Shown piece by piece: positions 19,420 through 34,867 of a stretch of DNA of 34,867 nt. Each line of letters starts with the position of its first letter. Position 1 is the stretch's first letter. The position numbers were made by a program, and so were the translations under genes. The notes under the pieces were generated by a model. The model did no database searches. It was given only the letters and a program-made list of their open reading frames with translations, and was not told where the DNA came from. Source of the stretch: Candidatus Omnitrophota bacterium (GTDB lineage Bacteria; Omnitrophota; Gorgyraeia; Gygaellales; Profunditerraquicolaceae); assembly GCA_026387555.1 (NCBI GenBank), contig JAPLLM010000003.1, positions 1,935-36,801 on the forward strand, written 5' to 3'.

Positions 19420-19979
19420 CTAACTGAAACTCCTCCTTGTCGTCCAACGTTCCAGTTATGGACATTGCCAGTTTCACTTAGGATTTGGCCCAACCGAGTA
19501 CCGATTACATTTAAGGTCTCTGTTTTTGCAGCATAAAAACCACTTAAAGGCGGATCACGTTGCCTTTCCTGTTGTTCCATACCCAATACAACCAGCTTAT
19601 TATTACCTTCTATTTGCTGCTGCAGAAGCGGTATATCATCAGGCGTAAGCCAGCAAGCCGCATCTGCCGGTAACCAAACGAACCAATGACCACTTGGTAG
19701 AACTCGAGAGAAAATCTCTGCTTGACGAGTAGTAATTTCTGTTAAACGTTTACCCAATACAACAATATCTCCTTTGGTTTCAGACGCTAATCCAAGGAGC
19801 CCCTGACGTAAAGCCCTACCCCCGGTACTTGAACAAAGCAAAATATGATGATCTTGAGAAACTATATTAGCCTGAGCGAAATGATCTTTTACTTCTCTAA
19901 GAGTAACTATACTTTCTTTGCGGTCTTCTACTGCTGCCATCACAGAATTAACAGCCTTATCGCCAGGCCCTGGTGAAAT
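18960..19979 (-). other. NTP-transferase (sugar-1-P nucleotidyltransferase / fucokinase-N-like) module plus beta-helix, split across the ORF B / ORF C boundary
   Basis: ORF B C-terminus: HILLCSSTGGRALRQ (cf. GG.G.RL), HWFVWLPADAACWLTPDDIP, KLVVLGMEQ...PLSGFYAAKTETL. ORF C N-terminus: VTHFNSPKDIYDFYRNLL (19269-19322; cf. f.H.GT..EYL / W.D.G....Y), then IHHSIIRVPEGVELVLGDDVIIDNTILDIVAEPGSIVSIPDGNLISNSRIYG (about 18985-19145, left-handed beta-helix-like). Confidence 0.4.
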
Positions 19980-22900: not shown

Positions 22901-25900
22901 CTATCATCTGAGGCTCCATACGGCAATCCTTAATAAGTCGTTCTAAGAAATCAGCTACAGTAGCAGCGTCTTTCCGTTTCAGAACGGCTGAACAGACTGT
23001 GGCGATTAATTGCAATCTTTCATTAGCAGGTAGAATAACGTTGATACTTTTATCGCGGTATAGAGGTAGCCCCAGAATGTCTCTCAACAAGACAAATACA
23101 TCTTCTTGCTTGGCGTCCTGAAAGATATTTCGCAATTTTTCTTGGCGTAGTAATTCATCTCGGATAGTCAATATTGTTACCAGCGGACTAGTTAAGGGTA
23201 CTGAAGACCTGACGCATGTTATGCCAACTGCAACTAATACCAATACACTGGAAATAAAGTAGGGGTCAACAAAGGGTAATATCGATAAAACATTGTTGCT
23301 ACTTCTATTCTCTGTATTCGCTCGTACCGCCGCGCCGACAGCTTTCTGAAATTTAAGAAGAACACCATTAATTGACAATTTTAACTTTTCAGTTGAACCG
23401 TTATTGTCGATTACTTGATTCGACATGCTCAAAAATTTTCGCTCAGAAGGAAATCCGGGGTTCTTGGCAAATCTCTTCTCTGCTAACTGTTTAGTCATGC
23501 CAAATTTACTAAATCTTGCTAACACGGTTTCCTTGCGTGCCGTTTCATTTCTACGTATATACCAAACCTCATCCCACAACGAGCTCAAGCCAAGTATATG
23601 GTTAAAAGCACAATCGACAATAATTAATCGGTTCCCCTGAACAAGTGCGCCTCGAATCTCCTCTAATACAATCTTTGCTATCGCAGGAATAAATATGCGT
23701 CTGAACTTTCTGTCTATGCGCATCACCAATATTTGCTTACCACCGATACCGCTTACTACTTCAGAGCACTGCTTAAAGGCAGAGCGCATTATTTCACGAT
23801 ATCTTGGGTTTTTGGGGAATTCGTGTTCGGTGTCAATTACGCGATAATTTAACGAAACCAGATAACTTGCTACTGTGGACTTTCCGCTTGCCGGATATCC
23901 CATCAATGCGATAATTTTTGCGCCTTTTTTATTTTTTAAAGCCAATAATTCTTTCATTTCACTAGACTGGGAATTACTGGTTACAAATGTCTTTATCCAT
24001 AATGCCACCGCGCCAACAGCTATACCTACAATCATTACTGCAGTCATAAGAAAATCGCCCAACACCATTCCCATCACCGCATTGCCTGACTTACCGTCAT
24101 TCTTCACCACGGTCGCCGCCGCGCCGGTATTCTTAAGCATAAATGGCTGCTCTCCCAACGCAATACCAAGCTCCCTATCTTCCTTAAGTTTCTCTAAGAT
24201 TGTGTTTACGATTTGTTCATGAATCAAGCACTTTATCCCGCAAGTTTTACAGATTTCCGGATCGTGCTTAATTTCTTTGCTTCTTTCTAATACTGCTTCT
24301 ACCGAGGCTTGCGAAAAATCTCCGACCTCAAAGTCTCCACGCCATGCATTCAAGGGATGCTCAAGGTAATCGCATAAAAATCCTACCCCAAAAGGATTGA
24401 CCACCATTTTGGACATCCGGATTTGGCAGGTCTTTGCCCTCGGCATACCGGTCAGGAATTTCTCATCGCCTCTTAAATCGTTCTCGGTCATTCCTCTCAA
24501 ATCTAAGCCCATCTTCATTTGTTTATTATAATTATATTTACCGCTCCGGGCATTCTCCTGCATAATAACAATCTGTCGCAAAATCTCTGCAATCTCCACT
24601 GGATTAAATGACCTGACAATCGCGCCCATATCAACTCTCACGGCAAGAAAATCGACGCCTAAATTATATGCCCAATCCGCGGCTTTCAGGATATCCCGAT
24701 AATTAGATGGTTCGGGGATCACTAAGTAAGTCAGACCGATTTCGACTTTAAAACCCGTTTCCCTCTTCCTCGTTACCAGTTCTCTGATATTGTTTTCTAC
24801 CCTCTTAAAGTTAAATTCTGGTTTAATTGGCCGGTGGACACTGCGGAACATTTCTTCGCCAATTGCAGATATACTAAATCTTACCCATCCGCTTTCTAAA
24901 GCAACTTCACGTGCCCGGCCAGCCAGAAGCTGACCGTTGGTGTATAATTTAGTACGCAGGCCCAGCCTGTTTGCTTCATCTAATATATGCCAGGCAATAT
25001 CTGTAGTAAGCGGCTCCAATCCCCCGGAAACCCAAATTTGTTCTGTCCCGCCCTTAGCAAATTCCCTGACCAGCTCTCTGGCTTTTTCGGCGGTCAAAGG
25101 TTTTCTGCCATTCCTGCTATCTTGATAACGGAAAGGACAATCTTTGTTGTGGTTGGTATAACAATATACGCATTTATAGGGACACCATGTGCCCGGATGA
25201 AACTCTGCAAGAAGTGGATAGACAACGGTTTTCTCATCAAAAATCCCCTCTAAACTCTTGCAGTGCTGCAACTGGAATTCGATCTCCCCTGCCACGCCGG
25301 CAAATTCGCTGTTATTGATCAACATCTGATGCAGCCCAGACACAGAGCGCAACATTCTATACGCCCGCAATAACTCACTGACTGAAAGATTGTTTCTTCT
25401 GCAGATCTCTTCGCTCTTGGCAACCGGAACCAATAATAAGGAACTAAGAACAGCGGCGGTATTCTTCAAATCTGGGGCTGAAATCTCATTACCTGATTTC
25501 GTAATCAGGCCTTCCAGGATCGGCGCAGCTTTTTCCGGGTCATTTTTCAGGAGTCCGGCGAGGTCACTGAGCGCCTGCGGCCCTTCAAATAAGAACTTTC
25601 TCTTGGTTGGATTAAACGGTCCTTCCGCAATAACTAGGACACGATTAGGGGAGGTATTCAGGAAGCGAAAACGATGTGCGGAAAAATTAATGGCCTTATC
25701 CCCTGCTTTCAATGAAACCGTGTACCGTTCCTTGGCGTGCTTATCCGCGAATACTGCCTCGCACTCGCCTTCTAAAAGCATGACCATATCCAACAACGGA
25801 CGCTCATCAGACCCTGCTTTATCCCAACTTAAGGAATTAACGGGTGGCTCTAAATGCAGGTACTCACCTTCACCGGATCTATCCTGCGGAGTCTTTAAGC

Positions 25901-28900
25901 CTGCGCCTAATGGGTTAGAAGGAACAAGGATGGGTTTCATCGCCTTATACTTCGGGTCATTCTGCCATAAATTGCTAGGGATAGCCGCAATTAACTCGCC
26001 GCCTTCTCTTATTACGTTAATATCATTAAGTAAGTCGAGTTTTTCTGCCAAGGTTTGCGCTTTTTTATCGATTATTCTATTTTTGCTGGCAAAAATCGTA
26101 AAGACAGCACCCACGCTTGACGCTTGCAGGGTATACGGAACGTACAAAGCCGCAATTCTTCCTTTCTCCAACGAAACCTTCTTGCCGGCAAACGTCAGCT
26201 CAACATCCCCATTTTCAATAACTATAATATTTTCAATACTATCTTCTTTCTGTTGATAGCATTCTCCTTGCCTGCTGAACGCTCTCGTTGAAATTGTGAT
26301 TGTCTGGCCGACTTCGTCGAATGATGCGACACTGCCTGACCTCATAATGATAGCAAGACGATCCCCTCTGCTATTCCGTACTTCCTCCATTATTCCCAGT
26401 GCAAAAATTCCTAACCCAGCTAAAAGTATATCTGCAGCCGGTTCGCCGGTAGAAATGAAAGGAATAACGAGGCCCATTGTCGCATTGCTTGACTTAGCTT
26501 TATTTGTTGCCCTGGCCGTCACCGCTACGCCGAACTTCTTCGCAATAACCGTAACCAGTTCCCCTCTTCCTCCAGCCTCTATTTGTTTTTTATTTTGGAT
26601 TACGCGTTGGAAATCTGCATCCGAAATCAGGCCATGTTCATGCTCTACGGCAACCCAGCGTTCATTAAATTTAGTTTCCAAATGCACTATCTCAAATCCG
26701 CTTTTCTCAAAAAGCATTCTTAATGTTTTCGGAGAGAAGTAATAGAAGTGGCCTATTTTAATATCGGAAAATTCCCTACCCTGGATTCTTCCTACTTCGC
26801 TATCCAAATTAGGCAATCTGGTTATGTACAACAGTCCACCATCCTTTAAAACCCGGCGCGACTCAGCTAATTCTGCGCTTGGGGCCAAAAGATGCTCTAA
26901 TGTTGCAAAATAACCCAATAAATCCAGCGAATTGCTTTCAAAGTTACGTTGGTGCAATGTTCCGTGAAAGGCCTTAAGGCCGTCCCGTGTTAACAATCCT
27001 ACCGCTTCCCTTGAAGTATCAATGCCTTCAACATCGAAGCCAAGTTTAGCTGCAGCTTTAAGATGATGTCCAGGGAAACCGCAACCGACATCCGCCATTT
27101 TCACTTTTTTGACATCGCCTAAATAGCGAGAAATAAATTCTATCTCCTGTGCTGCAGCGGCTTCCCTTTCAGGGCTAAGTTGATAGAAACCAGGCTCCCA
27201 TTCTATAACCCTAGGATTACGCACATAAACCAAGCCACAATTCCCGCACCTTACGATTATATCCTTTCTATCCGCCCGATAGCCATGTCCCGGAATCTTT
27301 ATTTTTCCGAGAGGAATATTCTCATCCTTTGCCAGAATTATCGGACCTACCCTAAATAATTCTATCTGCCTACCAGACCCACAAAGATTACAACATGTAA
27401 TTTCCGCTTCCGCCGAAACCTGCGGTTGCCCTACTTCTCTGAGCCCGTTAGCGATTAAATCCGGAGTTATGTTTTTGAATTCTTCGTTTTTGATTAAAAC
27501 AGTGTACCCGCTCATTTCCGGCACTCCCCAGCCATTAGTATAGAAACTATCAGGTGCCCTTTTCACGCGCGGATAGATAAATACAACAAACTCTCCGGAC
27601 GGCATTTTCTTCAATAAGATATCCAGCATATCCGGCTTAAAGCCCATCCGGATAAACTCTTCTACTTTATTTCTGGTAAGCGCCTTTACCTCTTGGCTCA
27701 CTTTGCCTCTAAGTAGTGTGTTATCCACCGGCCAGGATGGCACTCTACCTATACTCACCGCTCCCCTTTGCTCTTTAACTTCTACGGGTTGAGCTTCAAT
27801 GCTAAACCTATTCAGGCAACCTTGGAAATGGAAATGTTCTGGGATACTTCTGGCGGGACCGTTAAGGAACAGGCTTACTCCCGGAGCTTCAGCCACGAAA
27901 TCAAAAGCAACATTTAATACCTCTTCATCCCCCACAGTCTTGGTTTCTTCCCCGGTATGCCTTTTTGCCGCTAAGACAAAGCCGTGTTCCCTTGTCCAAG
28001 TAAAAGGATTTATAAGAATCCTATAATCACGCCAAGAGAATCCTCTCTGAGCCAGCGGCATAAATTGCGGGCACAGGTTACACCTCGTCCCACTCTCCCC
28101 GCCTATCTCTTTTATATCCAAAGCCAGACGCTTGATTAATAGTGGGAGGATATATATCCCATATTTTCTGGTGTATGTTAATGGGTGTAAGAGCATATCG
28201 GCGGCATTCTTTGGCTCTGCTGATAAACTTACTCCTTGTTGATAATGTTTGGGGTCGCGGTGGGCACAATAAGCCGCCTCAAACGGATCTACCTTCTTTG
28301 TCTCTATCCCCTTTATTCTGGCATCGACAAATCCCACTTTGCGCTGCTGCCAAGAAATGGCCTTGATTATATCCGTCATAGTGTATACTCTCAACCAGCG
28401 CAAGGATAATAACAGTAATCCTGCTGTAAAAGGATCAAAAGCACCAGAAATTTTATGATGCCACGCTACCTGTTCGGGTGCATATTTTAGATAGTTTTTC
28501 AGCACTAAGATTGTTGCTAATACTATAACTACTGCTAGTATCGCTGTACCAGGGAAGGAAATTAATGAATTGCAATTTACATCTGTGGATGGTTTATTTT
28601 CTGATGCAGGTTTTGTTGCGGGACTAGACTGTACATTCGGCGGCGCCTGCGACTGCTGCTGACTGGCTAACTCCCTAATTTTCTGTTGAGCGTTTTCGGG
28701 GGTAAAAGAAGAGACAAAAAGTATGGAATTAGTAAGATCCAAAGAATGGAAATAATAATTTATTGTTCGACCGGTAGTTAGAGGTTCGAATGCCGTATAA
28801 GAATCAGGACAAATTTCACTTTCGCTTTTTTCTAAACCATCTTCTTTTTCTCTGGCAAGATCTAAGCTTAAACTTATCACAATACTAGCCAATATGGGAT

Positions 28901-30071
28901 CTTCTATTGTTCTTATTATTGGAGGTACTACTCTTCTAATAAACTCGCGGTGAATATGATGTCTACTATAAATATCTCTCCAGTTGATAGATGCAGTTTT
29001 GCTGACCCATAAATTTTCGCTTGCTTCTAATATTTGGATGTGGGAGGCGAATCTGGCTAGATTTCCTCCCGCTAACTCTGATGCCAAAGGAACACCTACC
29101 TCAATGATGTCGCAAGGGGGCATGTTATTACGCGCCAATCTTATTCCCATTTCCATGGCGAGATTAAATTCTTCGGCGCTTTGAATTCCCCTTACCATGC
29201 GAGGGATGGAGTTTAAAAGAGCGTAATAAATAGGCTTATTTTCTGATTCTAGTACTGATAATAAAACCTTAGTGCTAGCGAAATTAATATCATATCTCTG
29301 TGTACTCCTTAAGGCGATTATATGCTTTGGAATTACCGAGATTAGACAAACGACATTAGGTAACCTGTATCGTAAGAACTCTACTATTGTCTTATAAATA
29401 GGTAACCCACTGCTTTTTGCATCTATAAACTTATAAATAACATAACCAACTATCATCGCTATCGCGAGAGAAACAAACCATGTGAAAACATGAATAGATG
29501 ATACCTCGATCGGTAACAAAACTGCTAAGTTGGGAGATTTAGCCGCAGGCTGCGCTGACTCAGGCTTCTTGGGTTCTTCCAGCTTGGCCGCAACAACTTC
29601 TGCTGGCTTTACAGTTACCGGAGTTTTCAGCGCTTTGCGGCGCGAGGCTTTATATCCAAACCAACCAGCACCAGTCAAAAATAGCGCCCCTATTCCTGCT
29701 AATATCCCGTACTTTAGCTTTTTGTTAATGCTTGTCTGTCCTGCTTGCGGCTGTTGGCTTGCCTTGAGGGCCACTGTTTGGGAAGCAGAAGAAGGCGCAA
29801 CCGGTGGCCCTACGGTTGGCTTGGCCGCAGGAACCTGCGCTTGCTTTTTCTCTTTTTTCTCTACTTCTTTAGGCAACCTTACATTAGCCATTCCTGCATC
29901 GGCTTCCATAGCACCCAACTCATTGTGCATAGAAGCTAGGTCATTTACCGCATCAGCGAGTTTTCTCGTAGAAGTTTCAAACTCATAATTAAGAGTGCCT
30001 ATTTTCTGATGGGTAAATTCTTCGACTTGAACACGCGCTGCTGCACGGTCCCTACCCACATAGATAGACAA
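19401..30071 (-). CDS. Giant ORF B (3,556 aa): membrane-tethered multi-enzyme protein (HIT-type nucleotidyltransferase, methyltransferase, radical SAM, kinase, 2x GT2 and others)
   Basis: Track ORF. TTG start at 30069-30071. An in-phase TGA at 30078-30080 excludes a longer N-terminus. Stop TAG at 19401-19403 (mRNA ...GCA GGG ATT CTT CGT TAG). It overlaps the end of ORF A by 20 nt. My residue count (3,556) agrees with the track, so aa-to-nt conversions below use codon high coordinate = 30071-3(i-1). Confidence 0.9.
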   Translation of the reverse strand: MSIYVGRDRAAARVQVEEFTHQKIGTLNYEFETSTRKLADAVNDLASMHNELGAMEADAGMANVRLPKEVEKKEKKQAQVPAAKPTVGPPVAPSSASQTVALKASQQPQAGQTSINKKLKYGILAGIGALFLTGAGWFGYKASRRKALKTPVTVKPAEVVAAKLEEPKKPESAQPAAKSPNLAVLLPIEVSSIHVFTWFVSLAIAMIVGYVIYKFIDAKSSGLPIYKTIVEFLRYRLPNVVCLISVIPKHIIALRSTQRYDINFASTKVLLSVLESENKPIYYALLNSIPRMVRGIQSAEEFNLAMEMGIRLARNNMPPCDIIEVGVPLASELAGGNLARFASHIQILEASENLWVSKTASINWRDIYSRHHIHREFIRRVVPPIIRTIEDPILASIVISLSLDLAREKEDGLEKSESEICPDSYTAFEPLTTGRTINYYFHSLDLTNSILFVSSFTPENAQQKIRELASQQQSQAPPNVQSSPATKPASENKPSTDVNCNSLISFPGTAILAVVIVLATILVLKNYLKYAPEQVAWHHKISGAFDPFTAGLLLLSLRWLRVYTMTDIIKAISWQQRKVGFVDARIKGIETKKVDPFEAAYCAHRDPKHYQQGVSLSAEPKNAADMLLHPLTYTRKYGIYILPLLIKRLALDIKEIGGESGTRCNLCPQFMPLAQRGFSWRDYRILINPFTWTREHGFVLAAKRHTGEETKTVGDEEVLNVAFDFVAEAPGVSLFLNGPARSIPEHFHFQGCLNRFSIEAQPVEVKEQRGAVSIGRVPSWPVDNTLLRGKVSQEVKALTRNKVEEFIRMGFKPDMLDILLKKMPSGEFVVFIYPRVKRAPDSFYTNGWGVPEMSGYTVLIKNEEFKNITPDLIANGLREVGQPQVSAEAEITCCNLCGSGRQIELFRVGPIILAKDENIPLGKIKIPGHGYRADRKDIIVRCGNCGLVYVRNPRVIEWEPGFYQLSPEREAAAAQEIEFISRYLGDVKKVKMADVGCGFPGHHLKAAAKLGFDVEGIDTSREAVGLLTRDGLKAFHGTLHQRNFESNSLDLLGYFATLEHLLAPSAELAESRRVLKDGGLLYITRLPNLDSEVGRIQGREFSDIKIGHFYYFSPKTLRMLFEKSGFEIVHLETKFNERWVAVEHEHGLISDADFQRVIQNKKQIEAGGRGELVTVIAKKFGVAVTARATNKAKSSNATMGLVIPFISTGEPAADILLAGLGIFALGIMEEVRNSRGDRLAIIMRSGSVASFDEVGQTITISTRAFSRQGECYQQKEDSIENIIVIENGDVELTFAGKKVSLEKGRIAALYVPYTLQASSVGAVFTIFASKNRIIDKKAQTLAEKLDLLNDINVIREGGELIAAIPSNLWQNDPKYKAMKPILVPSNPLGAGLKTPQDRSGEGEYLHLEPPVNSLSWDKAGSDERPLLDMVMLLEGECEAVFADKHAKERYTVSLKAGDKAINFSAHRFRFLNTSPNRVLVIAEGPFNPTKRKFLFEGPQALSDLAGLLKNDPEKAAPILEGLITKSGNEISAPDLKNTAAVLSSLLLVPVAKSEEICRRNNLSVSELLRAYRMLRSVSGLHQMLINNSEFAGVAGEIEFQLQHCKSLEGIFDEKTVVYPLLAEFHPGTWCPYKCVYCYTNHNKDCPFRYQDSRNGRKPLTAEKARELVREFAKGGTEQIWVSGGLEPLTTDIAWHILDEANRLGLRTKLYTNGQLLAGRAREVALESGWVRFSISAIGEEMFRSVHRPIKPEFNFKRVENNIRELVTRKRETGFKVEIGLTYLVIPEPSNYRDILKAADWAYNLGVDFLAVRVDMGAIVRSFNPVEIAEILRQIVIMQENARSGKYNYNKQMKMGLDLRGMTENDLRGDEKFLTGMPRAKTCQIRMSKMVVNPFGVGFLCDYLEHPLNAWRGDFEVGDFSQASVEAVLERSKEIKHDPEICKTCGIKCLIHEQIVNTILEKLKEDRELGIALGEQPFMLKNTGAAATVVKNDGKSGNAVMGMVLGDFLMTAVMIVGIAVGAVALWIKTFVTSNSQSSEMKELLALKNKKGAKIIALMGYPASGKSTVASYLVSLNYRVIDTEHEFPKNPRYREIMRSAFKQCSEVVSGIGGKQILVMRIDRKFRRIFIPAIAKIVLEEIRGALVQGNRLIIVDCAFNHILGLSSLWDEVWYIRRNETARKETVLARFSKFGMTKQLAEKRFAKNPGFPSERKFLSMSNQVIDNNGSTEKLKLSINGVLLKFQKAVGAAVRANTENRSSNNVLSILPFVDPYFISSVLVLVAVGITCVRSSVPLTSPLVTILTIRDELLRQEKLRNIFQDAKQEDVFVLLRDILGLPLYRDKSINVILPANERLQLIATVCSAVLKRKDAATVADFLERLIKDCRMEPQMIAEAKLMVNSYLSFYRIRTPVKVATVISVYGHQLSIQKKSEFEGAEDAMRNKILQLQELFSVNPLLDWQLIYVQDGDDRKYTSSLNSFKTTDLMLGILRKEFTAELKSGRICVFEVDQSLKEQIQGCQGSGVLYGMRKAVQLGAGIVIYTNVDLDTHVGLEGNIIKPLMEGSLDLVIGSNRVKGRVLHMGRLYYWYSIVLNRFIRTVLPVGHILDTHNALKGVKPEMIDTILPVSAQGDFEKGFDYFYTSSDLWISRAKVRGYRVGEVPSCMHHSPRLSVVSPWLSLKFFIRIWRQRKLLDEWKAATRSQVLLLQIATVEICEENKVRVIAKDSFEYQERLLQQIVKTKQSDKLLDFCRAVLSTDRSNNLAVRERFILLRMALALSLKESGVAILSMLGTVFSQQPEAKLLFESYRQVSRIAVLTKISTVMVLSRPEDHARSEYLRTRLEQLEDLYGFNPNVKWELIVVHEESYRNTPAELWQDKIKQECLSYAVKGQLKFLEIPWETCNRLGGRFGPGATYGMAHAIKGGADYVIYGHIRPAIDLALEGIILRPTMESSNNVGVASKFAPGSILQRGLKRNIGSYSYNWIVRSCLPRLSALTDTQCPFKAFSRDILDKILPVTIDGIWDNAFDYWTSFDTNLLGRADVIGARLIEAPVIFKISQREGSRCGEALRMVWGLVRQRNFLWQFRQQQNLIKQGTSPLVFIRDGKNMGSYLDWRDPSRVVKIPKRHYLNTVQNKNVNTPIHTNVQIRSSLFKKVIESLVRKVISINMIFRILKMIQQRKTLRTAFENIVTRILSRPALSMQEVVTMAQKLKGLIGDVHFYPGFRGVRGAKLYCGPAFSQQYGVISLEGALRLAVAHGNTALGRILIDEAFGVQEQIWQHGYFNWDTDNILIDTMMTSAGCWILVDFSDMTEDINLASQRLLNAHNSPFYLFTLLTIEEFSLELAQYYRTKFEKTFTTENLQKHWKYAMISPGPGDKAVNSVMAAVEDRKESIVTLREVKDHFAQANIVSQDHHILLCSSTGGRALRQGLLGLASETKGDIVVLGKRLTEITTRQAEIFSRVLPSGHWFVWLPADAACWLTPDDIPLLQQQIEGNNKLVVLGMEQQERQRDPPLSGFYAAKTETLNVIGTRLGQILSETGNVHNWNVGRQGGVSVSAGILR
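19430..19438 (-). promoter_or_regulatory. Strong internal Shine-Dalgarno-like AAGGAGGAG just upstream of the B stop / C frame opening
   Basis: The + strand ctcctcctt at 19430-19438 gives mRNA CAAGGAGGAGTTTCAGTTAGTGCAGGGATTCTTCGTTAGAAAAGTGG. No ATG/GTG/TTG in the ORF C phase follows within 150 nt, so its role (start site, frameshift stimulator, or chance Gly-Gly codons) is unresolved. Confidence 0.3.
20037..20804 (-). other. Protein-kinase-like / small-molecule kinase-like fold (tentative)
   Basis: aa ~3090-3345: SPLVFIRDGKNMGSYLDWRDPSRVVKIPKR near the start. WQHGYFNWDTDNILID...GCWILVDFSDM resembles the H.D....NIL ... iDF catalytic/activation segments of APH/choline/Kdo kinases, but the spacing is not canonical. 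Confidence 0.25.
20832..21638 (-). other. GT2 glycosyltransferase module 2 (dolichyl/polyprenyl-phosphate hexose synthase-like)
   Basis: aa ~2812-3080: ISTVMVLSR..., LIVVHEESYRNTP, GPGATYGMAHAIKGGADYVIYGHIRPAIDL (DxD position degenerate), LTDTQCPFKAFSRDIL (DTQCPFKAF = 21069-21095, canonical), FDYWTSFDTNLLGRADVIGARLIEAPV. Confidence 0.65.
22017..22850 (-). other. GT2 glycosyltransferase module 1 (dolichyl/polyprenyl-phosphate hexose synthase-like)
   Basis: aa ~2408-2685: VATVISVYG..., LIYVQDGDDRKYT, GSGVLYGMRKAVQLGAGIVIYTNVDLDT (DxD present), ILDTHNALKGV (22239-22262, degenerate form of DTQCGFK), FDYFYTSSDLWISRAKVRGYRVGEVP. Confidence 0.6.
23211..23342 (-). repeat. Junction element copy 5 (ORF B aa 2244-2287), full form
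   Basis: AVGAAVRANTENRSSNNVLSILPFVDPYFISSVLVLVAVGITCV. Confidence 0.7.
23352..23939 (-). other. P-loop NTPase kinase module (dephospho-CoA kinase / nucleoside-kinase-like)
   Basis: Walker A IIALMGYPASGKSTVASYL (GYPASGKST verified at 23874-23900). Walker-B-like LIIVDCAF. Lid-like RRNETARKETVLAR. Confidence 0.6.
23982..24131 (-). repeat. Junction element copy 4 (ORF B aa 1981-2030), full form
   Basis: NTGAAATVVKNDGKSGNAVMGMVLGDFLMTAVMIVGIAVGAVALWIKTFV. The 15-nt string cccatcaccgcattg (24070-24084) is identical to 16031-16045. Confidence 0.7.
24177..25238 (-). other. Radical SAM module (CX3CX2C) with C-terminal Cys-rich tail
   Basis: HPGTWCPYKCVYCYTNH. The three Cys codons were verified on the DNA at 25182-25184, 25170-25172 and 25161-25163. 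GGE-type SAM motif IWVSGGLEPL. Distal cysteines: C1882, C1900 and CKTCGIKC (aa 1941-1948). Confidence 0.75.
25572..26366 (-). other. Two cupin-like beta-barrel segments (tentative bicupin; sugar isomerase/epimerase-like?)
   Basis: aa ~1236-1500: IVIENGDVELTFAGKKVSLEKGRIAALYVPYTLQASSVGAVFTIF and MVMLLEGECEAVFADKHAKERYTVSLKAGDKAINFSAHRFRFLNTSPNRVLVI. Both follow the cupin G-x-hydrophobic...l.aGD...ip pattern. No metal-ligand motif recognised. Confidence 0.3.
26382..26531 (-). repeat. Junction element copy 3 (ORF B aa 1181-1230), full form
   Basis: GVAVTARATNKAKSSNATMGLVIPFISTGEPAADILLAGLGIFALGIMEE. Confidence 0.7.
26667..27149 (-). other. Class I SAM-dependent methyltransferase module
   Basis: Motif I KMADVGCGFPGHH (VGCGFPG = 27069-27089). 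An acidic residue ends beta-2 (FDVEGIDTS). Motif III-like region RVLKDGGLLYI. Confidence 0.65.
27234..27401 (-). other. Four-Cys zinc-ribbon-like segment preceding the methyltransferase
   Basis: aa 891-946: ITCCNLCGSG ...(about 40 aa)... RCGNCGLVY. Two CxxC pairs. Confidence 0.4.
27492..28106 (-). other. HIT-superfamily nucleotidyltransferase/phosphorylase module, GalT / GDP-hexose-phosphorylase branch (HxHxQ)
   Basis: aa ~656-860: TRCNLCPQF (CxxC), then FSWRDYRILINPFTWTREHGFVLAAKRH...GVSLFLNGPARSIPEHFHFQG. HFHFQ verified on the DNA at 27822-27836. This pattern (N.P...H..l, then N..gA..S..H.H.Q) is the GalT/Apa2/GDP-L-galactose-phosphorylase signature as I recall it. Confidence 0.5.
28491..28589 (-). 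repeat. Junction element copy 2 (ORF B aa 495-527)
   Basis: STDVNCNSLISFPGTAILAVVIVLATILVLKNY. Confidence 0.45.
29430..29540 (-). repeat. Junction element copy 1 (ORF B aa 178-214)
   Basis: KSPNLAVLLPIEVSSIHVFTWFVSLAIAMIVGYVIY. Fits N-x-x-[VM]-L-[LI]-P-x-[DE] plus hydrophobic helix. Confidence 0.45.
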
Positions 30072-33000
30072 ACGGCCTCATCGCAGACTCAAGAAATCTT
30101 TGCACTTTTGTATGCAGTGAGCTAAATAAGATACAGTACCCAGCTAAGATGACAGCAGAAAGAAATATAATACTAACGGCAAAAGACAAGGTAACCACAG
30201 AAGTTGTGGTGCCGGATATAAGCATAGCTACGGAAAGCGGCAAGAATAATCCCAGCCCTCCGCCGATGATAAATGTTACTACCTTAATTAAGAAGCGTGA
30301 ATCCGAGTGTCCGTGAAGGGCATTATATAACCAAGGGGCAAGAATCATAGAAAGTGCCATAGAACAAGCAAAAATATAGCTTGAGAATGAGATAATATCT
30401 AAACCACAGAATATCGCAGAGAGGTTGATGACTACGAGATAGATAGCACCGGATATTATTGTCGGCCTGAAAATCGGACCCAGCTCAGGGCTTTTCAAGA
30501 AATCGCGGAAAGGAACAGGATTCAATCCCATGCCTTTTAAACTGGTCACCCAAATCGCTGCGCCCTCAATACCTTTCTTGTTACCGTGGAAAAGAATCGG
30601 TATCTGAATACCGGCGAAGAAAGGTATAGCCATAGGCAGCCAACGGAAGATAAACCAAAGTATTCCCAAGAAGAATCCGTGCTGTTTAATCTTATTAGCA
30701 ACCAGATAACTGGATATTGATTGGCTAAGCACCCAATACATCACCAACATAAGGGGCATAAAAGGCATACTACCAAAAGGATTGCAATTAAACATCTGGA
30801 TAAAGGGTAGAAGAAGAGTACAAACAATCGCCAAGAAGCCGTTGGAAAGATAAAACATCAGCTGGTTATTCCTGCGTACCTTCTTATACCACGGGATATC
30901 AAAATTATTAACAAGGCCGGGAACTTTTATCTTTTGTCCGTAATTAATATTCGCTCCGCGTATGGAATCAGGAAGGACAAAGTCGCTTCCTGAGAAACCG
31001 CGGCTACCGGCAAGTTTAGCTGCGCCTGCTGTCCATTTGTCTAATGGCGTGGGGAATTGACCGACACTATTCTCAAATCCTTCCGTGGTTTCCGCGTAAA
31101 AGGCCACCCTGCCCAACATTTCGGGGAAGGCATCATTCATATCATTACTCATCGCGGTGTCTTCTGAAGGCTGGTCAGTCTCAAATGCCCCAGAAGCGTA
31201 ACATTTATCCAGACGGAAATATTTGTTATGGCCATAGAAACCCGACTGCTGCACTACTTCATCTTCCATAGGCACAACATCATTCCACCAGACATCCTGC
31301 GCCGTTCCGCCTAAGAAGGTAAACGGAGAATAACTTAAGGTGGTGATACGGTTACGCGTATTCAGGAACAATAATTTATCGTTCTTATTAAATTCGTCAA
31401 GGCAGGCGGGAACGCTCTCTATATCCTCCACTACCGTATCGGCATCGAGGAAGAAGGAGATTACGGGATGCTCTGGGTCATCCGGTATAAATTGCCTGCC
31501 GCCTCTAGTAACTGCTCCTATCTTACCTTTGTTGCAGTTCGGGCCACCGGGAGTAGTAACCCCGGCACGGCAGATTACCAATGGATTAGCTCTTACTGTA
31601 GTTATTCTGTATCCTGCCTTACGCGCTGCTTGTACTGAATCCACATATCCGCCCCATTCGCTGTAATAGTGGAGGCGCTCTGCGATATAGTTAAGGTCTG
31701 CCTGAGTGATCCCCGGGATAGCTTGAGCTCTTGCCTGAATACCTTGCAGATTTATCACCATTAATTCACCTAAGGAAACCGTACCCGGCCTGTTTGGTAT
31801 TTGTCTATTAGAGTTGTCTATATGCAAAGTATAAATTTCATCTGCTCTACCGAGCCGCTCAAACTCCCGATGCACTTCGACCATAGTACGGCAAGCGCCC
31901 CAGACGGTCTGGATATGTTGATTTGCCCATTCGCAGATTCTATAGCCAGCAACAGGGTTAGGTTGAACTCCTTGCCTCGTAATAGGCGAATTCTTCCTGA
32001 AGCCCAATGCCTGTTGAATAACCGGATAATCTTCAAGATGAAGATGGCCTTTTGAACCGCCGTAAAGACCACCCATTTCTGTCTCAAAGCTATTTCTGGA
32101 AATAGATTTGGTAAACAAATGGTTCAAAATACTCTGCTGGGATAATAACCAATGAATGGGGAATGTATTATTCAATATATTTAATAAAACTGCGTCTGTC
32201 CTGACCACTGCCACTCTAATTGCCTCTAAGAGTTCCGCAGGTAACCTATCTACGTGCTTAATTATGCTTTTGCTTTTTGAATCTATCGAATGGTTTAAAT
32301 TAAGCGCGGTCCGTATTGGTTGAGGGACATTGTTGTAATTGGTATTGTTCGTGTTCGTATAAACATTATGCCTAGTAATAATATCAATGAAGTGCCTAGC
32401 ACCTTCTTCTCTCTGTTGTGCGTCTTGGATATTCATTAATCCTTGTAGTATGCTACTTGGCAATACGGGACAAATCAACTCTTCAAAAGTATAGAAATCC
32501 GGCTCTACCACAGAACAGAGGAAATAAAGCAACCTGCACCTTCGTTCTCCTTCAACTGCCTGCGGCCGGATTAAGAGGGCATTATTTAGTAGGATCTGGC
32601 TGATAAATAAGGCAAGACTGCCGATTTCGGCAACGGTATAATACGACATTGCGGCTAAAGCAACTTGCGGGGCAACGGAATAAAGATACGCGGCAAGCAC
32701 GCCAAAGATGACTGCATTAACCAAATGTTTCCAGAGTGGCTTGGCGTACCTGGCTTTTATTTCCGGTGCGATAAATGAGTATCCGATTAATTCGGCGAGA
32801 GCAGAAACCAACCCGGCAACGATACCGAATGCCAATCCGAATATCAGCGCATGCGTGGTTATTGCCGAAACCCAACCACCCAATATCTTCCCTACATACA
32901 ATAAGACATGTTGGTCAACTAAACCAAAATAAGTTACTAAGCCGAAGAGAATAAAGTGCGCGGCTTTCTGGAACCAGTCAGACCTTTTCTCTATCGCCCC

Positions 33001-34867
33001 CATTAAAAATATGGCGTGGACGAAGATATTAATACCTAATAGATAAGCCGCCGCGCCGCTTGTAACCAGCCCGAAATACTGCAAGATGTGCGTAACCGCA
33101 GCCACCAAGGTGGTGCCGATAAATATCCTGTAAATGGCGTTCGGGCCACGGTATAAAGCTGTGGCTCCTTCAGGAAGATGGAAACACGGCAACCAGGTCA
33201 TGGTAGTTATCAGAATAAGGTATATTCCGGCTAAAAGCACTGCCGGGATACTGCCTAAGCCAAGAGCACTTACCTGAGCGATAAACCAAGGCAAAGTGGT
33301 AACCACAAGATACCCTGCGAAACCTAGGTACAGTGGTATAATTCCCATCTGATGCAGAATTTTGCCGAACGGTGCGCTATCCGCACCCTTAAATATAAAT
33401 CTTTGGACTAAATGAATAGTTAAGTAAATGCCAACGCCAATTCCAACAGCAATTGGCATACTGAGAATACCCTTAATTACAGCAATAGCTAATCCTGCGC
33501 CTGCAATTAAAGGCATGGCATCCAGAGTAAATCCGTTCCAGAAAGAATTGGTCCTCTGGCTTATCTTGGGGCAAAGCAGGAATAAAGCTACTCTTAACGC
33601 ATACAAACCAACAAATAATCCTAAGCCTCCGGTAAAACCGTTTATCATATAATAAGCTGTTGCCAACAAATATACGCTAAGTGAAAGCGGAATAAGCTGC
33701 GGCAGCCAATAAGTGAAGTTAATCCTTCCTCCCTGCGGCTTGCCTTCTGTAACTGCTTTCAAGAAAATGATGAAGCTGTTAATATTAATCCTGCGGGTAT
33801 TAGCGTCTGCAACATTAGTTACTGTTCCTTCCAAAGCCAACTGGAAGTAAGGATGTACTGCCTCGTGCGGGAAGAAACTAACCAAATTGCCGCGCTTGCC
33901 AAACCATAATCCATTTTTAAAGAGCCACTGTAAAGCCGCTTCTGCTTCGGGGTTAAGATTAGCGAAATCTGGGACACCTCTGTTTCCTAGATTCTCCCTC
34001 GTCACGTTAAGCGGAGGACCAGCAATGAGAAGTTGCTTGACTTGGGCATAAGTTACTGCGGGATTAATAACCAAAGCAATCCTTGCCGTGACATAAAGGG
34101 AATCAATGATATTCTGTAAATCTGAAAGGAATGTCCTTACATCTCCATCTGTCCAGCCATCGCGCACTACCCTCTCCTGTAGCCAGAAGAATAAAGAATT
34201 CACCGGCTTCTGGTCTGTATTCAGGGAGCTATTCATCACCCCGGTGATTACGGGATTATTGAGCTGCCTGTTGGCTGCTTGTTCGCTAGGTCGAACGACA
34301 AAACCCTTATTAAATACTCTATACATCAAGAAGCTGGCGATACGTAGTGCCACTTCGACAACAGCCACCGAAACTAACAGTTTCACGACAAAAGTTTCGG
34401 GCAACACGTATCCAAACAACTTAGCAATAAAATGTACGGGCACATATATCGGGAATCCTCCGTTTACAAACGGCATGCCGAATAGAACATAGGCTATAGC
34501 GCCTAAGAAAGTTATTCTTACTATCCAAATTATGGTATCATTGACCAAATAATTTGTGCGGCTTGTGTTTTCCTGTGCCTGTTGGACAACATTGGCATTT
34601 GCAGGCTGTACGGGGTTAAGTTGAACTTGAGGTTGTCCTTGCTGCTGAGCGTTTGCAACCCGCTGTCTACGAGTAGCAAATATTAACCTTACTGCTAGAA
34701 TTGCTTTCGCAATTAAAGCTATCCCTAAAGCCAACAGCGCTATGCCGGCAAGAATCTTTCCGGTGCTAATAAGATTAACTTGCGCTTTATGTGTAGTGAA
34801 CTGTTTTTGCGGATTAGCCAGATCCGCGCTATTCGTCTTAGCCTTAATAATAGAAACCTGATCCTTA
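30052..34867 (-). CDS. Giant ORF A (>=1,604 aa, 5' end outside window): polytopic membrane glycosyltransferase with a beta-1,3-glucan/callose-synthase-like (GT48-like) core
   Basis: Track ORF 30052..34734 (1560 aa, called from TTG at 34734). My translation of 34735..34866 in the same phase gives KDQVSIIKAKTNSADLANPQKQFTTHKAQVNLISTGKILAGIAL with no stop. The hydrophobic helix ILAGIALLALGIALIAKAILAV runs straight through the called start, so the true start is upstream of the window. Stop TAG at 30052-30054. Confidence 0.85.
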   Translation of the reverse strand, partial: KDQVSIIKAKTNSADLANPQKQFTTHKAQVNLISTGKILAGIALLALGIALIAKAILAVRLIFATRRQRVANAQQQGQPQVQLNPVQPANANVVQQAQENTSRTNYLVNDTIIWIVRITFLGAIAYVLFGMPFVNGGFPIYVPVHFIAKLFGYVLPETFVVKLLVSVAVVEVALRIASFLMYRVFNKGFVVRPSEQAANRQLNNPVITGVMNSSLNTDQKPVNSLFFWLQERVVRDGWTDGDVRTFLSDLQNIIDSLYVTARIALVINPAVTYAQVKQLLIAGPPLNVTRENLGNRGVPDFANLNPEAEAALQWLFKNGLWFGKRGNLVSFFPHEAVHPYFQLALEGTVTNVADANTRRININSFIIFLKAVTEGKPQGGRINFTYWLPQLIPLSLSVYLLATAYYMINGFTGGLGLFVGLYALRVALFLLCPKISQRTNSFWNGFTLDAMPLIAGAGLAIAVIKGILSMPIAVGIGVGIYLTIHLVQRFIFKGADSAPFGKILHQMGIIPLYLGFAGYLVVTTLPWFIAQVSALGLGSIPAVLLAGIYLILITTMTWLPCFHLPEGATALYRGPNAIYRIFIGTTLVAAVTHILQYFGLVTSGAAAYLLGINIFVHAIFLMGAIEKRSDWFQKAAHFILFGLVTYFGLVDQHVLLYVGKILGGWVSAITTHALIFGLAFGIVAGLVSALAELIGYSFIAPEIKARYAKPLWKHLVNAVIFGVLAAYLYSVAPQVALAAMSYYTVAEIGSLALFISQILLNNALLIRPQAVEGERRCRLLYFLCSVVEPDFYTFEELICPVLPSSILQGLMNIQDAQQREEGARHFIDIITRHNVYTNTNNTNYNNVPQPIRTALNLNHSIDSKSKSIIKHVDRLPAELLEAIRVAVVRTDAVLLNILNNTFPIHWLLSQQSILNHLFTKSISRNSFETEMGGLYGGSKGHLHLEDYPVIQQALGFRKNSPITRQGVQPNPVAGYRICEWANQHIQTVWGACRTMVEVHREFERLGRADEIYTLHIDNSNRQIPNRPGTVSLGELMVINLQGIQARAQAIPGITQADLNYIAERLHYYSEWGGYVDSVQAARKAGYRITTVRANPLVICRAGVTTPGGPNCNKGKIGAVTRGGRQFIPDDPEHPVISFFLDADTVVEDIESVPACLDEFNKNDKLLFLNTRNRITTLSYSPFTFLGGTAQDVWWNDVVPMEDEVVQQSGFYGHNKYFRLDKCYASGAFETDQPSEDTAMSNDMNDAFPEMLGRVAFYAETTEGFENSVGQFPTPLDKWTAGAAKLAGSRGFSGSDFVLPDSIRGANINYGQKIKVPGLVNNFDIPWYKKVRRNNQLMFYLSNGFLAIVCTLLLPFIQMFNCNPFGSMPFMPLMLVMYWVLSQSISSYLVANKIKQHGFFLGILWFIFRWLPMAIPFFAGIQIPILFHGNKKGIEGAAIWVTSLKGMGLNPVPFRDFLKSPELGPIFRPTIISGAIYLVVINLSAIFCGLDIISFSSYIFACSMALSMILAPWLYNALHGHSDSRFLIKVVTFIIGGGLGLFLPLSVAMLISGTTTSVVTLSFAVSIIFLSAVILAGYCILFSSLHTKVQRFLESAMRPFVYLCG
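30076..30079 (-). promoter_or_regulatory. Shine-Dalgarno-like GAGG 4 nt upstream of the TTG start of ORF B, inside the end of ORF A
   Basis: The mRNA reads GCGATGAGGCCGTTTGTCT. GAGG is at 30076-30079 and TTG at 30069-30071. The spacer is short (4 nt), so this is only a weak call. Confidence 0.3.
30115..30867 (-). other. ORF A C-terminal membrane block (about 8 helices, aa ~1290-1540)
   Basis: Hydrophobic runs: FLAIVCTLLLPFIQMF, FMPLMLVMYWVLSQSISSYLV, FFLGILWFIFRWLPMAIPFFAGI, IISGAIYLVVINLSAIFCGL, YIFACSMALSMILAPWLY, VVTFIIGGGLGLFLPLSVAMLI, LSFAVSIIFLSAVILAGYCILF. Confidence 0.7.
30955..32097 (-). other. ORF A cytoplasmic GT-A glycosyltransferase core, GT48 (FKS/callose synthase)-like motif set
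   Basis: Motifs read from the protein and checked on the DNA. RICEWANQHIQTVWGACRTM (W at 31927-31929; cf. GT48 R.WAS.R.QTL.RT). FLDADT (DAD 31438-31446). FYGHNKYF (31216-31236; cf. YGHPD[FV]F). PSEDTAMSNDM (31147-31167; cf. NEDI[YF]AG). DKWTAGAAKLAGSR (31000-31041; cf. K.A.G.GEQ.LSR). FYLSNGF...FIQMF then leads into the C-terminal helices. GT48 consensus strings are from memory. A cellulose-synthase-like GT2 is the fallback call. Confidence 0.5.
32575..33717 (-). other. ORF A N-terminal polytopic membrane block (about 12 hydrophobic helices, aa ~340-720)
   Basis: Consecutive 18-25 residue hydrophobic runs in the track protein, e.g. LPQLIPLSLSVYLLATAYYMI, GLGLFVGLYALRVALFLL, MPLIAGAGLAIAVIKGIL, IAVGIGVGIYLTIHLV, IIPLYLGFAGYLVVTTLPWFIA, IPAVLLAGIYLILITTM, ALIFGLAFGIVAGLVSALAELI. 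Confidence 0.7.

Follow-up and report, generated by a model that had tools for sequence, protein, structure and literature searches.

A stretch of 34,867 nucleotides (nt) from a Candidatus Omnitrophota genome (contig JAPLLM010000003.1 of assembly GCA_026387555.1; hereafter the window, in all 34.9 kb) carries on its minus strand a long open reading frame (ORF), ORF A, whose central, membrane-embedded module belongs to a small and previously undescribed protein family, new within the cellulose-synthase-like/GT48 superfamily. We regard it as probable that residues ~720-1480 of ORF A form a glycosyltransferase (GT) module of the membrane-integrated processive type, a synthase joined to its own channel, and that this module represents a new family bridging GT2 and GT48. 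Judged by the alignments of its members, the family is remotely homologous to GT48, the family of the fungal Fks1/Gsc2 and plant callose synthases, across the entire cellulose-synthase-like core, and still bears the DxD and (K/R)W signatures of the GT2 type. As no member reaches the Pfam cut-off for GT48 (PF02364), databases would not count it there; it is a bridging family and equally a relative of GT2.

An earlier note on this DNA had read the catalytic core of ORF A as carrying the motif set of GT48, placed between two transmembrane (TM) blocks at the head of a sugar-activating mega-ORF. The strings that it quoted are all present in the ORF A translation at the places given there, and the span in which it placed them (30955-32097, amino acids (aa) 880-1260) lies within the cytosolic domain.

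Motifs, topology and relatives of the module

Residues of ORF A are counted here from the TTG at 34734, and all features lie on the minus strand. Hydropathy divides the protein into an N-terminal block of TM-like segments (aa 367-722, roughly 10 hydrophobic helices; 32569..33636), a soluble region of about 568 aa (aa 723-1290; 30865..32568) and a C-terminal block of 6-7 TM-like helices (aa 1291-1542; 30109..30864), in agreement with the layout of TM block, cytosolic GT domain and TM block described earlier. Profiles and AlphaFold2 (AF2)/Foldseek comparisons, set out below, identify the soluble region as a GT-A glycosyltransferase domain, the catalytic module, and the C-terminal TM domain is a putative glycan channel. 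The N-terminal TM block is homologous to residues 2661-3369 of P0122, the closest relative found.

The cytosolic domain opens with a block that we call N0 (aa 721-860; 32155..32574), the counterpart of Fks ISQIWNAIIISMYREHLL ... MPTFTVLTPHYAE at the start of the Pfam Glucan_synthase family. It is degenerate in ORF A, reading ITRHNVYTN..NVPQP at aa 786-806 against RENFFAQ..IPEP in P0122; an Asn/Thr-rich low-complexity run, TNTNNTNYNN (window 32317-32379, the same aa 786-806), stands in place of the GT48-like RENFFAQ. There follows the WA motif string RICEWANQHIQTVWGACRTM (aa 932-951; 31882-31941), within which EWANQHIQTVW (aa 935-945; 31900..31932) represents the family motif (E/D)W(A/V/I)NxRxQ(T/M) and corresponds to R-I-W-A-S-L-R-S-Q-T-L-Y-R-T (942-) of Fks1. 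The string FFLDADT (aa 1094-1100; 31435..31455) holds what alignment identifies as the DxD metal/UDP-binding motif (UDP, uridine diphosphate); its DAD (aa 1097-1099; 31438-31446) aligns with FDAD of BcsA (D246/D248) and with the DAN of Fks LIDANQD. GFYGHNKYF (aa 1165-1173; 31216..31242, with FYGHNKYF itself at aa 1166-1173, 31216-31239) represents the family motif G(F/L)YGHN and compares with HYGHPDF in GT48 and FFCGS in BcsA. In PSEDTAMS (aa 1189-1196; 31147..31170, with SEDTAMS itself at aa 1190-1196, 31147-31167), which corresponds to the TED of BcsA, the finger-helix catalytic base, E1191-D1192 align with the catalytic E1221-D1222 of Fks1. Next comes the interface-helix-2 (IF2) motif DKWTAGAAKLAGSR (aa 1232-1245; 31000..31041), of which KWTAGAAKLAGSR occupies aa 1233-1245 (31000-31038). 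Its K-W pairs with the R-W of BcsA QxxRW, and its K..AG......SR with Fks1 K1261-IGAGMGEQMLSR, K1233 falling on K1261.

At the entry to the C-terminal helices stand FYLSNGF (aa 1294-1300) and FIQMF (aa 1311-1315). Further on, the gating-loop-like IWVTSLKGMGL (aa 1394-1404; 30523..30555) resembles Fks1 R-Y-I-S-T-G-R-G-F at equal spacing and is less close to the FxVTxK of BcsA. APWLYN (aa 1466-1471; 30322..30339) corresponds to A-P-F-V-F-N1490 of Fks1. Its family-invariant N1471 pairs with N1490, the exact end of the cellulose-synthase-like core of Fks1, defined as Gly615-Asn1490 (Zhao et al., PMC10499315). Five of the six equivalences to GT48 strings drawn in the earlier note were recovered by profile alignments (WAxxxxQT, DAD/DAN, YGH, ED and K..AG....SR); for the last one, which pairs FYLSNGF with F[YF]...GF, the alignments disagree in the region concerned.

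An exhaustive HMMER (phmmer) search with aa 861-1560 of ORF A against 1.84 billion representative proteins returned seven relatives, all covering the DxD-to-KW core or the TM part. P0122 matches at 45% identity (E 2e-135), and its identity to ORF A is 41-45% over the whole module. The other six, P0123-P0128, match ORF A at E 5e-11 to 2e-4, and five of these are 2,276-7,809 aa long. ORF A and P0122 form the most divergent branch of the family and are joined to its central subgroup by an hhalign match of 99.9% (E 8.9e-32, 344 columns). Four of the seven relatives are labelled at NCBI as proteins of Candidatus Omnitrophota/Omnitrophica metagenome-assembled genomes (MAGs), one as 'Bacteroidales' and one as 'bacterium', and one is unnamed; the 'bacterium' entry, MDA7857965.1, is a free-standing family member of 492 aa. 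Pattern scans found two loci (one already known) among GTDB species representatives and one in JGI metagenomes, the new loci being L014 and L016, while tblastn of a central member against plasmids gave marginal matches only. On the loci seen so far, the family is rare and occurs almost only as modules inside giant, multi-enzyme, many-TM proteins of Omnitrophota-type MAGs, resembling those named 'Archaeovorin'.

Two loci bear other taxonomic labels. L014 (JAJCYG010000058.1), from an 'Actinomycetes bacterium' MAG, is a single open frame of 4,939 codons across the entire 14.8-kb locus, and L017 (JBAZNE010000038.1) is a family member on a contig binned to a 'Bacteroidales bacterium' MAG. Both contigs are probably mis-binned and of Omnitrophota type; failing that, they would be evidence of a wider distribution.

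The family alignments yield a set of shared motifs: (E/D)W(A/V/I)NxRxQ(T/M), GSPKA, FFD(A/G)DT, G(F/L)YGHN, an invariant S-E-D, LGEGxET, (K/R)W(A/S/T)xG....SR, NIPWxEK, KxxGxFxG, (F/W)VTSxKGxG and PF(L/V)(F/Y)N, with its invariant N. No change is seen across 8-10 homologues in S-E-D, in G, Y and G of the FYGH motif, in the W and G of KWxxG, or in two single residues, the E of GEGxE and the N of PFLFN. Two members, P0124 (MFC1621359.1) and P0127 (MBN3039261.1), have lost the DxD (DKGC and EKGC) and read YGW for YGH, with S-E-D and R-W kept; from these substitutions, both copies are possibly catalytically dead or mechanistically different.

Relationships to GT2 and GT48

Searches with ORF A by itself were silent. 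Neither the whole protein nor its core or halves matched a Pfam or NCBIfam model even at E 10, PF02364 included. No PDB chain of interest was found by sequence, though Fks1 and BcsA are both well represented in the library. Among 5.8 billion proteins searched by word index, ORF A found only itself and the family alignment nothing; and hhalign of ORF A, or of ORF A with P0122, against GT48 or GT2 profiles stayed below a probability of 0.5%. The relationships described here are those of the family, to which ORF A is joined through its relatives.

The first of these is to BcsA. Searched against PDB, the family HMMER profile found Rhodobacter BcsA (4HG6, 4P00, 5EJ1) at E 2.5e-8 over profile positions 192-427. 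Against a BcsA-like profile of 10 sequences from plasmid-borne genes, hhalign gave 98.0-98.2% (E 1.5e-13 to 3e-14) over about 210-230 columns of the GT-A core, pairing KA(G), FDAD with FFDxD, TED with SED and QxxRWAxG with xxxKWAxG, and running on through IF2 and the next TM helix. One member, P0125, exceeds the cut-off of the GT2 family PF13632 (Glyco_trans_2_3; 40.4 bits vs 27); the GT2 matches of the other members are sub-threshold, and no Pfam GT2 family matches ORF A. Of the GT2 signature D, DxD, TED, QxxRW, the family has the DxD, the ED as S-E-D and the RW as K-W (R-W in P0124 and P0127) and lacks the Q of QxxRW, while the first D was not located in ORF A. The family shares with BcsA K-A-(G), DxD, (T/S)ED and (R/K)W-A-x-G, and BcsA is the best-scoring relative of its GT-A core. 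The N-terminal blocks and the C-terminal TM/gating region are without a match to BcsA. The C-terminal part of the family gave P 0.49-0.53 against the BcsA profile, the top non-significant alignment pairing VTSxKG with FKVTAKG. Furthermore, no Pfam match to a PilZ domain was found in ORF A, no BcsB partner was detected, and the cytosolic domain is about twice as long as the soluble domain of BcsA, which comprises about 260 aa.

Besides BcsA, the only PDB entries retrieved by the family profile were FKS1 and GSC2 (E 0.03-0.19), in collinear sub-threshold pieces that pair the family w.n.r.qt with WASLRSQT and apFlfN with APFVFN. A GT48 core profile was built from 23 diverse sequences, aligned out of 120 PF02364-annotated fragments of <=210 aa. 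The family matches it at 95.5-95.9% (E 1.4e-8 to 5.6e-9) over 181-183 columns, with YGHN on YGHP, SED on NED, GEGxE on GKGRD and KWAxG....SR on KIGxGxGEQxLSR. For a longer comparison we used a stitched Fks sequence, consisting of GSC2 821-1098 (from the intact N-part at locus L001) and FKS1 1144-1494 (taken from HMMER printouts) with X fillers. The alignment of the 10-sequence family profile to it (98.1%, E 6.7e-14, score 111) covers 482-504 columns collinearly in one piece, runs from WASLRSQT through PFVFNP and places ffDadte against LIDANQD. Under equal conditions single BcsA-like sequences scored 33-84 over 70-210 columns, so that one Fks sequence outscores each of them (111 vs <=84) over more than twice the columns; reversed-sequence controls gave P >=0.3 throughout. 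Homology collinear with the Fks core (about Fks1 830-1490) is therefore significant at the level of the family, and not for ORF A or ORF A with P0122 alone. As to the source sequences, the yeast/fungal FKS loci L001-L003 belong to long-read assemblies whose FKS genes are interrupted by numerous frameshifts (GSC2 of GCA_030035895.1 is one case), and such frameshift-derived GT48 fragments inflate the count of short PF02364 proteins.

Three blocks outside the GT-A core were tested each on its own, so that the match of the core could not contribute. N0, upstream of the WA motif, pairs IrxeynxlI..., RxKFWAnAxLRr..iPqp...llSLT with the Fks segment named above, and reaches P 8.8e-6 against GSC2 641-951, vs 0.054, and in an unrelated place, against the BcsA profile (reversed control 0.5); its Fks counterpart, with which PF02364 begins, includes the strand with UDP-binding Y849/E851. 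N1, in which WAxxRxQT and then KFxxL meet Fks WASLRSQTLYRT...KFKFL, gives P 2.2e-4, vs 0.4 for the BcsA profile. Block C, the TM half only, gives P 1.6e-3 to 3.6e-4 against Fks1 1275-1494, vs the 0.49-0.53 noted for BcsA, with KxxGxFxG on ERGLWKAT, (F/W)VTSxKGxG on RYISTGRGF and PFLFN on APFVFNP. The similarity does not extend to every part of Fks: FKS1_dom1 (PF14288) and FKS1_dom2 (PF23605), both seen in GSC2, have no Pfam match in ORF A, and the N-terminal 900 aa of ORF A/P0122 gave an hhalign probability of 0.1% against GSC2 1-720 and no similarity to BcsA either.

Taken with the same profiles, GT48 and BcsA are undetectable to one another: the GT48 core profile scored a probability of 0.3% against the BcsA profile, the stitched Fks sequence 0.2-0.4%, and the GT48 core profile found only Fks1 and Gsc2 in PDB. 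Because the family is similar to both, it constitutes a sequence bridge between them. Its GT2-like states are a true DxD and an invariant Trp after the IF2 Lys/Arg. Its GT48-like states are YGH, GxGx(D/E), K..AG......SR, PFxFN, the spacing of the (I/V)(S/T)(T/S)x(K/R)G loop, the two N-terminal blocks and a cytosolic domain of roughly 570 aa. A prokaryotic relative of GT48, or a proposed origin for it, was also sought in the literature; the searches returned nothing relevant and no sequence intermediate.

Fks1 itself has been shown by cryo-electron microscopy to have a cellulose-synthase-like fold (PMC10499315, PMC12715860), and the comparison with GT48 (Fks1/Gsc2 and callose synthases; PF02364; PDB 7XE4, 8JZN, 9WZS) is collinear over that whole core. 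The shared elements run from the PF02364 start (TVLTPHYAE), WASLRSQT, the DAN/DxD position, YGH and ED to GKGRD/GEGxE, K1261..AG......SR, YISTGRGF and PFVFN1490, and in both cases a cytosolic GT domain of about 570 aa (Fks1 713-1281) lies between TM blocks. There are differences as well. Fks1 has a DAN motif and metal-independent catalysis (PMC12715860), whereas the family has DxD, with D1097-A-D1099 in ORF A and D-(A/G)-D in most relatives. An invariant Trp follows the IF2 Lys, as in the RW of GT2, whereas Fks1 has K-I/L. Neither FKS1_dom1, FKS1_dom2 nor any accessory domain accompanies the module, no Rho1-type regulator would be expected, and the family occurs in bacteria, as part of proteins or gene arrays that measure 4,000 to >11,000 aa.

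Structure prediction, with ORF A and then P0128 as target and alignments of 8 sequences, gave AF2 models with a mean predicted local distance difference test score of 52-53 (60-85 in the core). Foldseek searches of PDB with both models placed membrane processive GT-A synthases on top (Chs1/2, BcsA, HAS, CesA, Fks1/Fks2 and cyclic-glucan synthase), with E-values between 1e-6 and 1e-2 and TM-scores between 0.2 and 0.37; the Fks alignments were among the longest (about 575-632 columns), and the P0128 list included a few soluble GT-A enzymes lower down. The structural comparison suggested in the earlier note thus bears out the fold class, processive membrane GT-A synthases, without separating Fks from BcsA. 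The kinship with GT48 proposed there holds as a significant, collinear, remote homology of the family, and a core placed firmly in GT2 with no GT48 signal is not what hhalign found; ORF A alone shows no significant similarity. Outright assignment to GT48 goes too far: the similarity of the GT-A core to BcsA-type GT2 is no lower than that to GT48, and no member reaches the PF02364 cut-off, the three flanking blocks being the part that aligns with Fks only.

Competing explanations and a proposed mechanism

Several observations count against a bridging synthase. Over the shared core region the BcsA profile outscores GT48 (80-85 vs 70). PF02364, with a gathering score of 37.2 bits, is found below its cut-off in two of eight family segments (best E 0.0043). 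Outside the core, the GT48 comparison consists of one stitched yeast sequence, with GSC2 from a frameshifted assembly, in place of a diverse profile; with about 60 comparisons made, block P-values of 2-4e-4 carry modest significance only, and the C-terminal part alone found no match in PDB by HMMER. Because both AF2 models are of low confidence, Foldseek supports the fold class and cannot rank Fks against BcsA. Lastly, for ORF A and P0122 no similarity to a GT family could be detected directly, so that the link of ORF A to GT48, and with it the whole case, is transitive, by way of 6-8 relatives. ORF A is also degenerate at two family/GT48 positions, with T-R for the K of GSPKA and RHNVYTN for RENFFAQ. 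Its activity is not assured because of these two positions, and, to judge from the alignment, it may be less canonical than its relatives.

A rival reading is that the family is simply a divergent GT2 processive synthase of BcsA, OpgH or Glyco_trans_2_3 type, whose GT48-like strings would be superficial or convergent and would reflect the known shared cellulose-synthase-like fold of GT2 and GT48. The core does score best with BcsA, in profile-profile and HMMER comparisons alike; its DxD is canonical and its (K/R)W-A-x-G is as in QxxRW; Pfam GT2 families match two to three of eight members each, one above cut-off, as against two of eight, both below, for PF02364; and BcsA, Chs and HAS lead the Foldseek lists. 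We nevertheless consider this explanation unlikely. The three non-core blocks align with Fks at P 9e-6 to 4e-4 but with BcsA at P 0.05-0.5, a single Fks sequence surpasses all BcsA-like ones in score and more than doubles their columns, the soluble domain has the length of that of Fks1 and not of BcsA, and YGH, GxGx(D/E), K..AG......SR, (I/V)(S/T)(T/S)x(K/R)G and PFxFN are all GT48-like.

Less likely still is a loss of catalysis in ORF A, its module being a relic that serves the giant protein structurally or as a channel only and that has diverged from active family members. In favour of this, ORF A and P0122 form the most divergent branch and cannot be matched to GT profiles directly, ORF A conserves neither the FFAQ motif nor the K of the KAG-like UDP-binding motif, and the loss of DxD from P0124 and P0127 indicates that catalysis is lost within the family. 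ORF A, however, retains DxD, the invariant S-E-D, K-W-x-x-G, the VTSxKG loop and the PxLYN end; the extent of its identity to P0122, over the whole module, indicates purifying selection; and UDP-sugar pyrophosphorylase domains are encoded immediately downstream. As for mere chance resemblance, with ORF A an orphan membrane protein of no GT ancestry, the failure of ORF A alone to match Pfam, NCBIfam or PDB sequences and the self-only result of the 5.8-billion-protein search would fit. The idea is nonetheless ruled out for practical purposes by exhaustive HMMER relatives at E down to 1e-135 and 5e-11, by family-profile matches to BcsA and Fks at E 1e-8 to 1e-14 (reversed controls P >0.3) and by the E 8.9e-32 join of ORF A and P0122 to the central subgroup; the processive membrane synthases on top of the Foldseek lists also speak against it.

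What the analysis shows is homology, conserved motifs, topology and gene neighbourhood; catalysis, donor, product, metal dependence and export are inferred from these. As a bridging synthase, the module would operate as follows. The cytosolic GT-A domain, between its two TM blocks, would bind a UDP-sugar via the DxD (D1097/D1099), probably with a divalent metal. D1192, the Asp of the invariant S-E-D, would act as the catalytic base; by homology, this would make the module an inverting GT-A enzyme with ED as base, as in GT48, where the catalytic role of the ED (E1221-D1222 in Fks1) is taken from published work (PMC12715860, PMC10499315). K1233-W1234, on the interface helix, would hold the acceptor end of the growing chain; at the position aligned with K1233, the K1261L variant of Fks1 is non-functional (PMC10499315). 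The polymer would then be threaded outward through a channel of the flanking helices, with the VTSxKG loop as its gate, on the BcsA principle of synthesis coupled to translocation. The UDP-sugar would probably be made by the UDPGP domains encoded just downstream in ORF C, and modification of the sugar, or of the polymer, may fall to the methyltransferase and radical SAM domains in ORF B. As to UDP-glucose as donor and beta-1,3-glucan as product, those downstream UDPGP domains are the sole hint.

A probable giant gene, and what the family may mean for GT48

Nearly all of the window is taken up by three very long minus-strand frames. ORF A (30052..34866) is an open frame of 1604 codons with its stop codon at 30052-30054 and its 5' end cut by the window/contig end. 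Its first in-frame start is the TTG at 34734 (ORF 30052..34734), from which point the frame stays open to 34866. Because the frame is open to the window edge and this TTG falls within a hydrophobic TM helix, ILAGIALLALGIALIA, the N-terminus of the protein is missing from the window; in the database copy of the ORF A protein (P0001), on a 41-kb contig, the residue at the window edge and first of the sequence is a K. Further downstream on this strand, ORF B (19401..30071; 3556 aa) has Pfam matches to DUF4922 (27816-28085), a class I S-adenosylmethionine (SAM) methyltransferase domain (26679-27161) and a radical SAM domain (24714-25196). ORF C (1..19419; >6473 aa), which leaves the window, contains two UDPGP domains (PF01704, UDP-sugar pyrophosphorylase; 10546-11184 and 1861-2535), of the UDP-glucose/UDP-GlcNAc pyrophosphorylase type typical of eukaryotes, in addition to a weak SPASM match. 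The two UDPGP copies are separated by about 2,900 aa, and no paralogy was detectable between them (BLASTP, E 1e-6); nor was internal paralogy found among ORFs A, B and C.

Adjacent ORFs overlap in different frames, by about 23 nt at the A/B junction (30052-30077) and about 16 nt at the B/C junction (19401-19419), ORFs A and C being in the same frame, and the first 50 codons of ORF C contain no ATG, GTG or TTG. In P0122 (5306 aa), one polypeptide holds an ORF A-like part (residues 2661-4168), an ORF B-like N-terminus (4300-4627) and about 2600 aa upstream of the ORF A-like part. These junction overlaps, the start-less beginning of ORF C and the A/B fusion in P0122 suggest that A, B and C are not three genes but one giant gene of >11,600 codons broken by frameshifts, whether assembly errors or programmed. 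ORF B probably belongs to the same giant gene or operon as ORF A, which itself most likely represents part of a giant gene or of a tightly coupled array. ORF A cannot be kept as the head of a mega-ORF, the position given to it in the earlier note: its frame leaves the window, its TTG lies in a TM helix, and P0122 is fused with 2,600 aa upstream.

Some further features were seen. More than 85% of ORFs B and C is without a Pfam match. A plus-strand ORF of 288 aa (window 25390-26256) lies wholly antisense inside ORF B and, facing a long coding region, is most likely open by chance. P0122 also carries, somewhere along its length, a Glyco_transf_5 (starch-synthase-type) domain.

Giant Omnitrophota proteins have been described as the 'Archaeovorin' type (West-Roberts et al. 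2023, 10.1101/2023.11.21.568195), and a 2026 preprint (10.64898/2026.06.07.730766) describes for such proteins a 'Module 2: sugar metabolism'. The relatives of ORF A are likewise giant many-TM proteins of Omnitrophota MAGs, and the window ORFs (>3,500 and >6,400 aa) mix GT, methyltransferase, radical SAM and sugar-nucleotide domains, as do the proteins described in both papers. Term searches of the two papers yielded, in contrast, GT1, starch-synthase, GH, peptidase and similar soluble domains, with no mention of cellulose found; TM regions were deliberately excluded from structure predictions in one of the papers. Nor did those searches find a membrane-embedded Fks/BcsA-like synthase module mentioned in either.

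GT48 enzymes make the beta-1,3-glucan of the fungal wall, the target of echinocandins and ibrexafungerp, and the callose of plants. It is possible, though we hold it only tentatively and think it rather doubtful, that the family is the closest living prokaryotic relative of GT48, sister or ancestor-like, and that the Fks and callose synthases arose from such a bacterial module. If so, the bacterial module would already have possessed the Fks-type channel half and the extended N-terminal GT helices, the change from DxD to DAN and the loss of the RW tryptophan would have come later, and the family would be a true evolutionary intermediate between GT2 and GT48. This evolutionary interest depends on the sister relation to GT48 holding with diverse full-length GT48 profiles and better structures.

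As a bacterial family significantly similar to both GT48 and BcsA, and sharing Fks-specific elements outside the GT-A core, it would offer a concrete handle on how GT48 arose, sorting the features of Fks into ancestral ones (the N-terminal helices, the IF2 Lys...SR, the YISTGRGF loop and the PFVFN end) and derived ones (DAN and the loss of Trp). It would also provide a bacterial, possibly more tractable, model of Fks-type synthesis and translocation, for which the 492-aa member is free-standing. For the giant proteins of the Omnitrophota, it would supply a first function, polysaccharide synthesis and export, for part of their Pfam-dark TM stretches.

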